Source: a virus (taxonomy: Duplodnaviria > Caudoviricetes). From it: a DNA stretch of 64,000 nt. This document shows, piece after piece, positions 53,011 through 56,427 of the stretch (positions are counted from its first letter, which is position 1; each line of letters begins with the position of its first letter). A program made the translations under genes and the position numbers. The DNA is taken from IMG/VR virus record IMGVR_UViG_3300025401_000012. One strand, written 5' to 3'. The notes beneath the pieces are model-generated. The model was not told the origin of the DNA, ran no database searches, and worked only from the letters and a program-made list of their open reading frames with translations.

Positions 53011-53210
53011 TACCAATGCCTTATGACGCCTGCGATTATAAAAGTGTTTGTAAGTACATATGATAACACAATTAAGGTACGAATGCAAGCAATTCGGTCC
53101 GATTCCTTGTCCGTGTTGCCTGCTTTCTCACCTAATGCTTTGGCCCAAAGGCGCCAAAAATACTTAACCTTCGTACGTAGCCGAATTAGCACCGTGTTCA
53201 AATACTTCAA
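53010..53210 (-). CDS. Small membrane protein; start uncertain
   Basis: WRLWAKALGEK...IRTLIVLSYVLTN..IIAGVIRHW with one TM helix; TAATG-coupled to the UV endonuclease. Confidence 0.6.
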   Translation of the reverse strand: MKYLNTVLIRLRTKVKYFWRLWAKALGEKAGNTDKESDRIACIRTLIVLSYVLTNTFIIAGVIRHW

Positions 53211-53649
53211 CTGATTTAACTCTTACTGTTGGGTTAATTGGGTAGCGTTGATTGCCATTTACTAATAAGTCTGCCATTTTGTCATATGCCATTTTGGCAA
53301 ACATTTCACAGCCTACACCTTCCACAATACGTAAATCGCACAAGCCGCTATCATTGAATCCACCTTTAATTTCATTTAACTGTTTGAATGTTTCAAGATG
53401 GGGATCGTCTTCTGCAATAACTAAAGTGTGATCAAACATATAGTCTGCCCACGCTTTGAATTCTTTGAGTCCGCCAAAGTCCATGCACCAGTTTTTGTCA
53501 TCTAGTGTGTCACATTCAAAGATTAATTTGATGCCAATTGAGTACCCATGTAGCGTTGAGCAATGACTGTGTGTGGCACGCCATTGTCTAAAACAGCATG
53601 AAAGTCCGCGATCATTTCCGTAAGTTTTTGTAGAGTAAAATTTTGCCAT
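53164..53649 (-). CDS. queD: 6-pyruvoyl-tetrahydropterin synthase/QueD-like T-fold protein
   Basis: HCSTLHGY, DFGGLK, FDHT, CEMFA, VEVFEH (T-fold Glu). Confidence 0.75.
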   Translation of the reverse strand: MAKFYSTKTYGNDRGLSCCFRQWRATHSHCSTLHGYSIGIKLIFECDTLDDKNWCMDFGGLKEFKAWADYMFDHTLVIAEDDPHLETFKQLNEIKGGFNDSGLCDLRIVEGVGCEMFAKMAYDKMADLLVNGNQRYPINPTVRVKSVEVFEHGANSATYEG

Positions 53650-53713
53650 TGTTGTCTCCTAAGATTAGCAATGGCGGCAGAGTTTATATTGCGGGATGAC
53701 GCCTAGTCCGCAT
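53642..53713 (-). ncRNA. Candidate cis-regulatory RNA (H-type pseudoknot/anti-AUG switch) in the queD leader
   Basis: P1 UGCGG/CCGCA, loop ACUAGGCGUCAUC, A-rich linker, CGCC complementary to the loop GGCG; alternative GCCAUUG/CAAUGGC helix covers the AUG. Confidence 0.4.
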
Positions 53714-53719
53714 ATAGTA

Positions 53720-53748
53720 ATTATATACTTTTATTGCGTAAAGTCAAT
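53720..53748 (-). promoter_or_regulatory. sigma70-type promoter TTGACT-17-TATAAT (queD-uvdE)
   Basis: -35 at 53748-53743, -10 at 53725-53720. Confidence 0.8.
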
Positions 53749-53749
53749 G

Positions 53750-55210
53750 TTATTGGCTAGCAATCATGCCAAACCCATACCAAACACCAGGTGTTCCGGA
53801 CACAATACAAATCCAGCCAACATAGTTGTTAGGTTGCGGATCAGTATTCCAACAGATATCACCTTTTACAAATGTGCCAATAGTTGGCATTTGTGTACTA
53901 TTAGTGAACCGTCTTCCACCTAATGCAACATCACCGTTCACACTAAATTGTAATGTTGGGTCAGGATTATTGATATTAACACTCAGAGGCCCAAATATTT
54001 TGACAGGTTTTTGTTGTTGTGTTTTATCACCTATATTAATTTGGTTTGTATCTCCATATACAATTTCAGTATTATTAACAGTGATAGATGCATTACTTGT
54101 AGTATCAATGCCATTGCCTGTATAACGATAAGTTCCGATTGCAACATCTATGTTAACAGCAATACTAGAATTAAACAGTGCAGAACCTTGCACTACTAGT
54201 GTTTCAAGTTCTCCAACAGTGGTAAGATTACTATGTGTAATACCACTACCTAAACTAGTTTCTGCTATTACAGGTTTTCCATTTATACAATATTGTTTGT
54301 CGGAATTAATATCAATATTTTCACTAGACCATAGTCTAGTCGGACCGCTCATCATAACAAGTTGACTTGTAGTATTAGTATCAGTCCACACTAGCCCTAA
54401 ACCAAAAATGCTAGTATCTTTAGTTGCACTAAATTGTAGCGGATGTGTACGATCAATTCTATTATCAGTTACGATACTTCCTGCGCTTATAACTCCTGCG
54501 ACATTTAAATTACCGGCAATATTCACTTCGCCTGTATTCTTAATAGTAATACGTGGTAAATTATCTGTAGTAATTGCAAGATCGTGGCTACTAATAGTCC
54601 CAATAGTGGCTAAATTAATTTCAGGACTTCCAATTCCAATTTCAACATTATTATCGAGAATAGTCAAACTTGCACTAGGATCTTCTGTACCTATGCCGAT
54701 TCTGTTTAATCCGCTATTAATAAAGAAAAATTCTCCCAAGTTGGCATCGCCAGCCACACTTAGATTTGTCAATGTGCCTACACTTGTTAAACTACTAGAT
54801 TTAATACTTCCGCCTAACATTCCCGCCGATAGTACAGGAATATCGTCAATAGAATAAGACGACCCATTTGCCAAATCTAAATTAGCATTAGTCCAAAGAC
54901 GATTACCAAGACGATATATTAGTTGAGTTTGTCCAAGACCATATGTCCAATTAAATCCTTTACCGTTTAATTCTGCTTCGGTATTGTAAACCCATTGTCC
55001 TACACTAGCTAGTCCACCATTGTCTGTGACTAGATTTTTAACATTAAATGTATTAGCTGTTAGTGTACCGTTTACTGACAGGTTATAGCTTACATCGAGG
55101 TTGCCGATGATATTTGTATTACCGCTATGCTGTACATCACCGCGAGTATTAACTAATGTTAAATCTGTAATGGAAACGGTAGATTCTTGTATATCAAATA
55201 ATTTGGACAT
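53750..55210 (-). CDS. Fibre-like structural protein
   Basis: Repeated S(S/N)LT(S/T)VG(T/E)L motifs, NRIGIGTEDP, C-terminal GDICWN.DP...YVGWIC. Confidence 0.65.
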   Translation of the reverse strand: MSKLFDIQESTVSITDLTLVNTRGDVQHSGNTNIIGNLDVSYNLSVNGTLTANTFNVKNLVTDNGGLASVGQWVYNTEAELNGKGFNWTYGLGQTQLIYRLGNRLWTNANLDLANGSSYSIDDIPVLSAGMLGGSIKSSSLTSVGTLTNLSVAGDANLGEFFFINSGLNRIGIGTEDPSASLTILDNNVEIGIGSPEINLATIGTISSHDLAITTDNLPRITIKNTGEVNIAGNLNVAGVISAGSIVTDNRIDRTHPLQFSATKDTSIFGLGLVWTDTNTTSQLVMMSGPTRLWSSENIDINSDKQYCINGKPVIAETSLGSGITHSNLTTVGELETLVVQGSALFNSSIAVNIDVAIGTYRYTGNGIDTTSNASITVNNTEIVYGDTNQINIGDKTQQQKPVKIFGPLSVNINNPDPTLQFSVNGDVALGGRRFTNSTQMPTIGTFVKGDICWNTDPQPNNYVGWICIVSGTPGVWYGFGMIASQ

Positions 55211-55257: not shown

Positions 55258-56427
55258 TTATTGTACTTTTAACAGTACAATTTCCTCATTAATACGTCCG
55301 TTCATTCGAGTATCTGTAGCATTGATGGTATCTAAGAACTTGCGTAGTTGTACTTTACCAGCTGCTTTGAATTCTTTAAGTTTTTCATCTGGTTTGCGCA
55401 GAGTCTTACAAATACTGAGATTCTCGCTAAAACCGGTAATTGTAGTACCTTTGATACTTAAATCTTTGTATTCTTCTGCAACATATCGACCCAATTTACG
55501 GGTCTTAGTATTGTAAACCCAAAGTTCCTTGCTACCAATAATATCAGTAGGATTGATACTAACCAATTTCAAAGGCTCGTTACTCTTCATATATTTCAAT
55601 TTGGCAACAATCTTATCTTTTGGCACAGACTTAGTCTTACGGGGTTTGCGATTAACTTTAGCTTCTTGTGCCAACATATCACACGCACTCATAATCTCTT
55701 GATAAAATGCAATCAAATTACGAATTTGTTTCTTTGTACGATGGCTGTAGCCCTCTTTAAGCTGTTCATCTGCATTACCGCTAGCTAACTCTAGTAGTTC
55801 GTCTAAATCCCTTGTATAGAGGGTTTTAATGACTCTAGCATGGGCGGCTTTGACCTCTTTTCCTTTGAGCAAGTTAAGCATTTTAAATGCTTTTGGATCA
55901 AAGTTTTCTGGATCTTCTTGGAAACCTTCTATAGCATCTTCGATTTCTTCAGTCATTCGAAAAGCTGTTTCACGCAACCGATCTTGGATGCTAGGTTGAG
56001 CTACTACAGGTTTAGCCAATTCAGCTATTTTATTAGCTTCTTCGTCGATGTCGTTTTTACCTGCTTCGATTACTTGCACAATTTCGTTACGCAACCACGC
56101 AGATGCATCGCGGCCTTTATTAAAATCTGCACGAACAGCCGGCATACCGCGAAGTAAGCAACTGGCAATAGCACCCATTGTAACATTACAACGACCATCT
56201 TTGGTTTTCTTAAAAGCTGTAATATCTTCTTTAGTACACCCAACCGACTGCATCCATTTGAGCACAGCTGGTTTCAAATCTTTGCCCGAAAACTCCAAAC
56301 GATAGTAAGCAGTTGCAGAATGAAATTTTTGTAGAAATTCTGCTTCTGTCCAAGTTTCATGTCCTTCCCAAACTGGACTATGATCTTTTGGTACCCGTGA
56401 ACGAGTTGCTGTAGCTGTTTTAGCCAA
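55258..56427 (-). CDS. Hypothetical phage protein (probably early)
   Basis: 389 aa, TTG start behind AGGAG, preceded by a consensus sigma70 promoter. Confidence 0.75.
   Translation of the reverse strand: MAKTATATRSRVPKDHSPVWEGHETWTEAEFLQKFHSATAYYRLEFSGKDLKPAVLKWMQSVGCTKEDITAFKKTKDGRCNVTMGAIASCLLRGMPAVRADFNKGRDASAWLRNEIVQVIEAGKNDIDEEANKIAELAKPVVAQPSIQDRLRETAFRMTEEIEDAIEGFQEDPENFDPKAFKMLNLLKGKEVKAAHARVIKTLYTRDLDELLELASGNADEQLKEGYSHRTKKQIRNLIAFYQEIMSACDMLAQEAKVNRKPRKTKSVPKDKIVAKLKYMKSNEPLKLVSINPTDIIGSKELWVYNTKTRKLGRYVAEEYKDLSIKGTTITGFSENLSICKTLRKPDEKLKEFKAAGKVQLRKFLDTINATDTRMNGRINEEIVLLKVQ

Follow-up and report, generated by a model that had tools for sequence, protein, structure and literature searches.

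Introduction

Riboswitch classes have to date been defined in cellular genomes, and phages carry copies of them only occasionally. T4-type phages regulate translation through RNA operators; the leader of T4 gene 32 begins with a pseudoknot, and hairpins mask the ribosome-binding sites of T4 genes e, soc and 49. The class I preQ1 riboswitch (preQ1-I), represented by the aptamers of B. subtilis and T. tengcongensis, is built from a 5-bp helix P1, a 2-nt loop L1, a 4-bp helix P2 and the loops L2 and L3 (PMC10639078). Here we describe the 64-base leader of a queD-like gene in a giant lake phage, which lies with its gene on the minus strand of a 64,000-nucleotide stretch of phage DNA (IMG/VR record IMGVR_UViG_3300025401_000012; hereafter, the window). 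A reading of the sequence without database searches (hereafter, the sequence-only reading) had proposed that this leader forms a riboswitch-like pseudoknot related to preQ1-I. We found that the leader carries an H-type pseudoknot that is conserved with covariation in uncultured phages, leads to a QueD-like gene at every site with enough downstream DNA and shares a strand with a second helix that masks the translation start site.

On balance, we favor the view that the element belongs to a new class of riboswitches, restricted to phages and similar to preQ1-I, whose response is to turn translation on. The more detailed proposal, a virus-only class in which a preQ1-I-like pseudoknot was rewired to an ON switch and governs the timing of QueD translation during infection by sensing a guanine nucleotide or a metabolite of the 7-deazapurine or pterin pathway, seems to us about as probable as its opposite.

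Results

A leader pseudoknot conserved in uncultured phages

The sequence-only reading had described a helix P1, a 13-nt loop, an A-rich linker and a pairing of GGCG with CGCC, all of which are present on the minus strand, where the element spans 53713-53645. P1 is formed by UGCGG (53708..53712) and CCGCA (53690..53694); its 13-nt loop reads ACUAGGCGUCAUC and the A-rich linker that follows reads AUAUAAACUC. GGCG (53700..53703), the variable part of the P2 5' strand, stands in a fixed register with 53676-53673, where CGCC (53673..53676) forms the P2 3' strand and pairs with 53703-53700. P2 is longer than had been recognized. Its pairs flank UCA on the 5' side (53697..53699) and UGC on the 3' side (53677..53679), again in a fixed register, and CA and UG also pair (C53698-G53678 and A53697-U53679), while U53699 stands opposite C53677. 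The length of the element is ~47 nt.

When the IMG/VR proteins were searched with the QueD of the window, 357 relatives were obtained, and 80 loci with 76-99% amino-acid identity were kept. The leader element was present in 76 of these 80 loci, which had been retrieved solely by QueD protein similarity. The four loci without it comprised three in which QueD directly follows another gene with no spacer, and one large phage (L080/G004). For a second retrieval we used a DNA pattern in which the conserved loop bases and two P1 pairs were fixed and no P2 pairs were fixed. This pattern yielded at least 120 additional viral contigs; among the matches listed, all five P1 pairs formed in 117 of 120 and a QueD-like gene followed the element in all 120. 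As a negative control, the same pattern was applied to 596 Gb of bacterial and archaeal genomes, where the matches listed comprised 118 chance matches, of which four formed every P1 pair, together with two genuine copies. The latter reside in ~5-kb contigs of one metagenome-assembled genome, 'uncultured Bacteroidetes bacterium YR_bin-4742', a bin that probably holds contaminating phage contigs. The two contigs (L236 and L295; CAIJZG010000002.1 and CAIJZG010000025.1) carry two different variants of the phage element.

In total, we collected at least 195 sites in uncultured phage contigs, one per locus, with at least 127 distinct aptamers. Among the matches listed, a QueD-like open reading frame (ORF) came directly after the element in 188 of the 192 usable sites. 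The remaining four comprised one QueD-like ORF that the motif filter had missed and three sites with one small ORF followed by QueD. All 192 sites with enough downstream DNA therefore lead to a QueD-like gene, in agreement with the link to a phage queD-like gene that had been suggested for the window. No fewer than five divergent QueD-like subfamilies are represented among the proteins encoded downstream, yet the RNA core is nearly constant. Further, a covariance model built from the phage element (R1) found one copy in the 64-kb window (44.3 bits, E 7e-9) and a single copy in each of four large phage records, among them two complete genomes of 355 and 382 kb; the copies in these four records always precede QueD.

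One locus contains a degenerate second copy (L089:8-54; 29 bits), with UUCGCC in place of UCUGCC. It precedes a 309-aa methyltransferase-like ORF, which itself lies directly before the intact element and QueD, and it may be a decaying duplication.

The homologues delimit the conserved bases. L1 (ACUA, 53704..53707) contains the invariant C53706 and U53705 and has 0-5 additional spacer bases in other phages. Its first base is not U as in preQ1-I, as had been remarked; it is A in the window and, among homologues, A, U or C in equal shares and never G. The CUAG in the loop had been taken as a likeness to the B. subtilis aptamer, but its bases are not conserved among homologues and the likeness is therefore coincidental. 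L2 (UC, 53695..53696) reads UC, UUC, CUC, UUUC, AC or CC among homologues; its last base, C53695, abuts the P1 3' strand and is invariant in the set retrieved through protein similarity. L3 (AUAUAAAC plus UC, 53680..53689) has a constant length of 10 nt, namely 8 nt and UC. Within it, A3, A5, A7 and the terminal UC are invariant, U2 occurs in ~90% of the sequences and the eighth base is C or U. P2 comprises 4-7 variable pairs, the U.C mismatch formed by U53699 and C53677, which is invariant, and the conserved C-G and A-U pairs, giving 7-10 layers in total; all four Watson-Crick pair types were seen at the innermost variable position. UCA/UGC was kept in 126 of 127 distinct copies (at least 127 being known), and the lone variant, UCG/CGC, exchanges the A-U pair for G-C in a compensatory manner. 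The invariant unpaired bases, which are typical of a folded pocket, together with the U.C mismatch and the fixed linker suggest a tertiary structure.

MAFFT alignments misplaced the register of P2 or P1 and were replaced by a gapless 47-column alignment and a model-fitted alignment. In the gapless alignment of 46 sequences, 93.5% of the cells were paired (76% when shuffled) and 104 cells were altered on both sides (33 when shuffled). In the model-fitted alignment of 86 distinct sequences, the values were 94.7% (75.3%) and 183 (54), and none of 500 shuffles reached the observed value in either alignment. When the partners were slid by 1-3 columns as a control, pairing fell to 31-56%. In the 86 distinct sequences, P1 was 99% and P2 92% paired, and 10 of the 12 pairs were altered on both sides, including four of the five P1 pairs (AU/UA; GC/UA/CG; CG/AU/UA). 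The conservation and covariation that the sequence-only reading had proposed to look for across phage queD leaders were thus found, and the H-type pseudoknot is conserved with covariation in both helices.

These data also bear on whether the pairings arose by chance in an AT-rich spacer between genes and lack a function. The single-sequence fold of the leader, which does not exceed its shuffles (z = -1.18), would agree with such an origin. However, at least 195 copies with compensatory changes in both helices stand against it, and the 118 cellular chance matches, among the matches listed, serve as a negative control. The comparative data therefore refute the chance explanation, the probability of which we regard as practically nil.

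Distribution of the element

The element was not found in cultured phages. When 50,697 records of cultured phages were searched with the leader by BLAST, only chance matches within genes were obtained, and no element emerged from model-based scanning of the regions around QueD in phages Iggy, Burkholderia BCSR5 and Synechococcus BUCT-ZZ01; QueD is tightly packed in operons in these three phages. In full-text literature searches, we encountered no account of an RNA element in phage queD leaders.

The element is limited to a single lineage of T4-related giant phages and was not found in cultured phages with a related QueD. Such a distribution would also suit a protein-binding translational operator, where the balance of the folds is set by a protein of the phage or its host, which could be QueD or a RegA-like translational repressor. 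T4-type phages use such RNA operators, as in the gene 32 leader pseudoknot, and the strict link to QueD is compatible with autoregulation as well. However, the RNA core is nearly invariant even though at least five divergent QueD-like subfamilies are encoded downstream, and we know of no QueD-type T-fold enzyme that binds RNA. Further, the element is small (~47 nt), with its conserved bases clustered at the helical junction as in small-molecule aptamers, and no candidate partner gene consistently adjoins it. We therefore consider a protein operator unlikely, and we favor a small-molecule riboswitch.

The P2 3' strand doubles as an arm of a start-site helix

The sequence-only reading had also noted a perfect 7-bp helix, GCCAUUG/CAAUGGC, that traps the start codon and excludes the pseudoknot. 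This helix is present, and it appears together with P1 in the minimum-free-energy fold of the window leader (-16.8 kcal/mol). Its 5' arm (53669..53675) shares G53675, C53674 and C53673 with P2, its 3' arm (53645..53651) includes the AUG at 53649-53647, and the Shine-Dalgarno (SD) sequence AGGAG (53656..53660) lies in its loop, all on the minus strand.

The same wiring was observed in the homologues. In all 144 distinct platforms, the P2 3' strand doubles as the 5' arm of a helix over the SD or AUG region, which is 4-9 bp long (median 6-7) and masks AUG in 91 platforms and the SD region in 53. Further, SD or AUG was paired in the minimum-free-energy fold of 153 of 154 leaders. At least five platform designs were distinguished: CAUUG..CAAUGGC, GUCAUC..GAUGGC, a CCUAUG..CAUAGG hairpin, GUCUUC..GGAGAC and AUCUU..AAGAU. 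The arms vary in a compensating fashion (e.g., AUUG/CAAU versus AUCUU/AAGAU), and thus the competing helix itself is under selection. The median duplex energy of the sequestering helix was -9.0 kcal/mol and that of P2 was -6.0 kcal/mol, values at the duplex level that leave out loop and tertiary terms. The sequestering helix is thus stronger by ~3 kcal/mol at this level, pointing to a masked start site as the default. Because the P2 3' strand is an arm of the masking helix, formation of P2 exposes the start site. The ON rather than OFF logic that had been predicted for the window is therefore consistent with the homologues, in which the mutually exclusive start-site helix was kept in function over at least five platform designs. 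A terminator was sought in the leader and none was found.

An extended -10-like motif, TGnTAnAAT, lies within the loop of the hairpin that masks SD (CCUAUGCUAUAAU..CAUAGG) in 49 of the 144 platforms, for example in the type C platforms at L012:2975-3000 and L089:1040-1075. The motif may serve as an internal promoter whose transcripts escape the switch, or it may have arisen by coincidence from the sequence of the hairpin.

In the mechanism that we propose, the mRNA would begin at or just ahead of P1 and the RNA would have two alternative folds. One would be the H-type pseudoknot with the 5-bp P1 and P2, in which L3, A-rich and of constant 10-nt length, would probably occupy the minor groove of P1 and form an L3-P1 triplex. 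The other would keep P1 and add the helix that joins the P2 3' strand to the SD or AUG region. The start site would be blocked by default, and stabilization of the pseudoknot would free the AUG and turn QueD translation on. The likeliest stabilizer would be a small molecule bound at the P1/P2 junction beside the invariant C53695.

The same two folds could also operate without a ligand, if the pseudoknot were constant or were set by temperature, Mg2+ or co-transcriptional kinetics. The element would then counteract sequestration on its own, tune translation, act as an RNA thermometer or stabilize the 5' end of the queD mRNA. Several features would suit such roles: the placement of the aptamer at the very start of the predicted transcript, after a sigma-70-like or T4-late-like promoter, the long P2 that is possible in some phages (7 pairs), the modest helix over the start site, which is a thermometer design, and the A-rich L3, whose docking on a G-C-rich stem is also typical of ligand-free viral pseudoknots. 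However, a thermometer or stabilizer needs neither an invariant U.C mismatch or junction bases nor a strict link to one enzyme family across at least five subfamilies. Further, a pseudoknot that always wins would leave no reason for a competing helix to be kept in five redesigns, and at the duplex level P2 is weaker than the sequestering helix. A ligand-independent element is thus rather unlikely in our judgment, and a ligand-responsive ON switch accounts better for these features.

Promoter and downstream gene

The leader occupies a 100-nt spacer between the end of the upstream gene (53750) and the queD-like gene. As had been proposed, a promoter close to the consensus precedes it on the minus strand: the sigma-70-like -35 hexamer TTGACT (53742..53747; 53747-53742) and -10 hexamer TATAAT (53720..53725; 53725-53720) are separated by 16 nt and match the sigma-70 consensus at 11 of 12 positions. 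Because of this promoter geometry, the transcript start is predicted near A53713, one base ahead of P1. At least 43 related loci have TTGAC-N16-19-TAnAAT at the same place ahead of P1, as in the window. In at least 37 loci, a T4-late-like (A/T)TAAATA lies 3-12 nt ahead of P1. Two promoter types are thus joined directly to the aptamer (L012, L033-L036, L054-L058 and others, ~10 nt before P1), and therefore the same switch would be expressed early or late in different phages. A 9-codon leader-peptide ORF starting from an AUG within P1 was considered and rejected, because other phages read AGCGG or AGAGG there.

The gene behind the leader (53164..53649, minus strand) encodes a 161-aa QueD-like 6-carboxy/6-pyruvoyl-tetrahydropterin synthase, which matched Pfam PTPS (7.7e-16) and PHROG 2389 'QueD-like' (1.8e-37). 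It scored under the cut-off of the NCBIfam QueD equivalog (35 versus 89 bits). In bacterial QueD and PTPS, the corresponding site reads C-x3-H-G-H. The family of the window protein has C-x3-H-G-Y and an additional H-S-H immediately ahead of the Cys, and the QueD of Pseudomonas phage Iggy has the same; the zinc ligation of this family may therefore differ from that of canonical QueD. The two proteins are 52% identical and share the motifs STKTYG..GLSCCFRQWRATHSHCS.LHGY. The DNA of phage Iggy is described as containing dPreQ0 (PMC10484667).

The gene adjoining the promoter upstream (53750-55210, minus strand) encodes a 486-aa protein with PHROG matches to tail-fibre and virion proteins, and the product of the next gene (55258-56427, minus strand) matched PHROG 11903, whose function is unassigned in PHROG. 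From the matches of the flanking genes, the queD unit lies between structural genes and a radical SAM array and not within a que operon.

Pathway context and candidate ligands

In related phages, GTP cyclohydrolase I (FolE) is encoded within a few kb of QueD, and a QueE-like radical SAM enzyme is encoded a few kb downstream of QueD in at least 45 loci. In one large phage record (G001), a phosphoribosyltransferase and a cytidylyltransferase are encoded just upstream of the element and a QueC-like protein elsewhere. FolE and QueE were searched for in the 64-kb window and neither was found. The Pfam TGT/DpdA model gave no match in five large related phage records, a search that a very divergent DpdA could escape. 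The cultured cyanophage BUCT-ZZ01 has a cluster of QueE, xanthine-guanine phosphoribosyltransferase, QueD and FolE without the leader.

In four loci (L326, which is G001:134500-139800, L080, L151 and L327), the neighbors of QueD include an NAD-dependent epimerase/dehydratase, FolE, a phosphoribosyltransferase, a cytidylyltransferase, a QueE-like enzyme and GT1-like glycosyltransferases. One protein near QueD in this group has an N-terminus that is KdsA-like by eye.

Giant freshwater phages thus appear to make 7-deazaguanine compounds without DpdA/TGT. The pathway may run at the base or nucleotide level and not via DNA transglycosylation, and a link between the 7-deazapurine pathway and nucleotide or sugar chemistry seems possible.

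Any ligand would probably be a guanine-like 7-deazapurine or a pterin. Our leading guess would be a guanine-like heterocycle, that is, a 7-deazaguanine such as preQ0, 7-carboxy-7-deazaguanine (CDG) or preQ1, a pterin such as dihydroneopterin triphosphate (H2NTP) or 6-carboxy-tetrahydropterin (CPH4), or a guanine nucleotide. Taking into account the C that never varies at the junction, the association with QueD genes and the ON polarity, we tentatively rank guanine-like heterocycles of the pathway or its input (H2NTP/pterins, GTP, CDG, preQ0, preQ1) first and unrelated signals second.

Discussion

The queD leader element has several generic hallmarks of a riboswitch, namely covarying helices, invariant unpaired bases, a variable and mutually exclusive expression platform and a link to genes of one pathway. 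Several points weigh against its interpretation as a preQ1-I-like ON switch. Were the ligand a product of the pathway, an ON response would be unusual for a biosynthetic gene, and to our knowledge every known preQ1 class works as an OFF switch. Of the three positions that contact preQ1 in preQ1-I, two (the U of L1 and the last A of L3) are not kept. P2 has 7 pairs plus the conserved CA/UG pairs in some phages, and such a long P2 might fold without ligand. The energy comparison that places the sequestering helix above P2 takes no account of loop and tertiary terms. The fold of the leader as a single sequence is no better than chance, 24 of 200 shuffles being as stable, and the case therefore rests on the comparison with relatives. 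In that comparison, the shuffle statistics overstate independence, because the sequences share ancestry, a concern that the slid controls and the many pair types mitigate.

If the riboswitch interpretation is true, a class with many copies in uncultured large phages and next to none in cellular genomes would mean that viruses evolve their own metabolite sensors. The element would further be the first ON-type relative of the preQ1 family. As a compact aptamer of ~47 nt with a new pocket, formed by the U.C mismatch beside the helical junction, it would be of interest to RNA structure work and synthetic biology. The element also offers a handle on an unexplored phage 7-deazapurine pathway, which comprises FolE, QueD, QueE, a QueC-like protein and a phosphoribosyltransferase, with no TGT/DpdA homologue detected in the large phage records searched. 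The identity of the ligand would show which intermediate the phage monitors.

Comparison with known RNAs

Scanning the leader against the 4227 families of Rfam 15, which include the preQ1 and folE/THF-II models that the sequence-only reading had proposed for such a scan, gave no match at E 10 on 301 nt or 66 nt; further, there was no match at gathering score in the whole 64-kb window. Membership in preQ1-I, -II or -III, THF-II or another catalogued family is therefore rejected. As true preQ1-I controls, we used five RF00522 aptamers (39-56 bits) from three Firmicutes genomes (Neobacillus, Bacillus and Clostridium), for example AGAGG-UUCGUAAUUCCAUC-CCUCU-AUAAAAAA-CUAAGG; L3 of the five reads AUAAAAAA or AAAAAAAA. 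The phage element did not reach the RF00522 gathering threshold (39 bits). Reciprocally, the phage model R1 scored true preQ1-I aptamers at only 8.3 and 6.2 bits, and its sub-threshold matches fall exactly on the CAUC-CCUCU-AUAAAAA segment of two of the five controls.

The proposed likeness to preQ1-I was borne out in part. Both are small H-type pseudoknots at the 5' end of the mRNA of a que-pathway gene, with a 5-bp P1 whose loop-side pairs are GG/CC. In both, the last base of L2 is C, and C53695 matches the ligand-pairing C by position only. Both have an 8-nt A-rich L3 segment with A3, A5 and A7, and U2 is present in four of the five true aptamers. In both, L3 is followed by the P2 3' strand, which also forms part of the expression platform.

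These common features would be expected of a divergent but true preQ1-I member that binds preQ1 or preQ0 like the bacterial aptamers. We consider this very unlikely, as the RF00522 model that recovers the five controls gives no match to the 66-nt leader at E 10, and the reciprocal phage model gives those controls only 6-8 bits; L1, the end of L3, the length of P2, the U.C mismatch and the regulatory logic all differ. In contrast to the short L1 of preQ1-I (2-3 nt), which is led by U, that of the phage element is NCU plus 0-5 nt. Its L3 has an extra invariant UC, and its length is ~47 nt instead of ~34 nt. P2 of preQ1-I is short (3-4 pairs) and adjoins the final adenine of L3, whereas that of the phage element comprises 7-10 layers, among them the invariant U.C mismatch as well as the conserved C-G and A-U pairs. 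P2 frees the start site (ON) in the phage element, whereas in preQ1-I it hides the SD sequence or forms a terminator (OFF). Further, the phage element occurs in uncultured large phages and preQ1-I in cellular genomes. A separate phage class, as we prefer, may nevertheless work like the P1-L3 module of preQ1-I and may descend from it, to judge from the similarity of the two sequences.

The preQ1-II, preQ1-III, SAM-II/SAM-V, guanidine-III, fluoride, NAD+-II and THF-II riboswitches resemble the phage element in being compact pseudoknot aptamers with control of translation through access to the SD sequence, but none matched it in Rfam at E 10. We know of no conserved bases common to the consensus sequences of these other pseudoknot riboswitches and the phage element. 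The leader of T4 gene 32 and the start-site hairpins of T4 are similar in that a T4-related phage controls translation by a 5'-terminal mRNA pseudoknot or a helix at the start site. However, the T4 elements respond to gp32 protein or to promoter choice, whereas the phage element described here has both folds on one transcript. Further, unlike gene 32, the gene in the window encodes an enzyme, a QueD-like T-fold protein, and the conserved junction bases of its leader suggest a small ligand.

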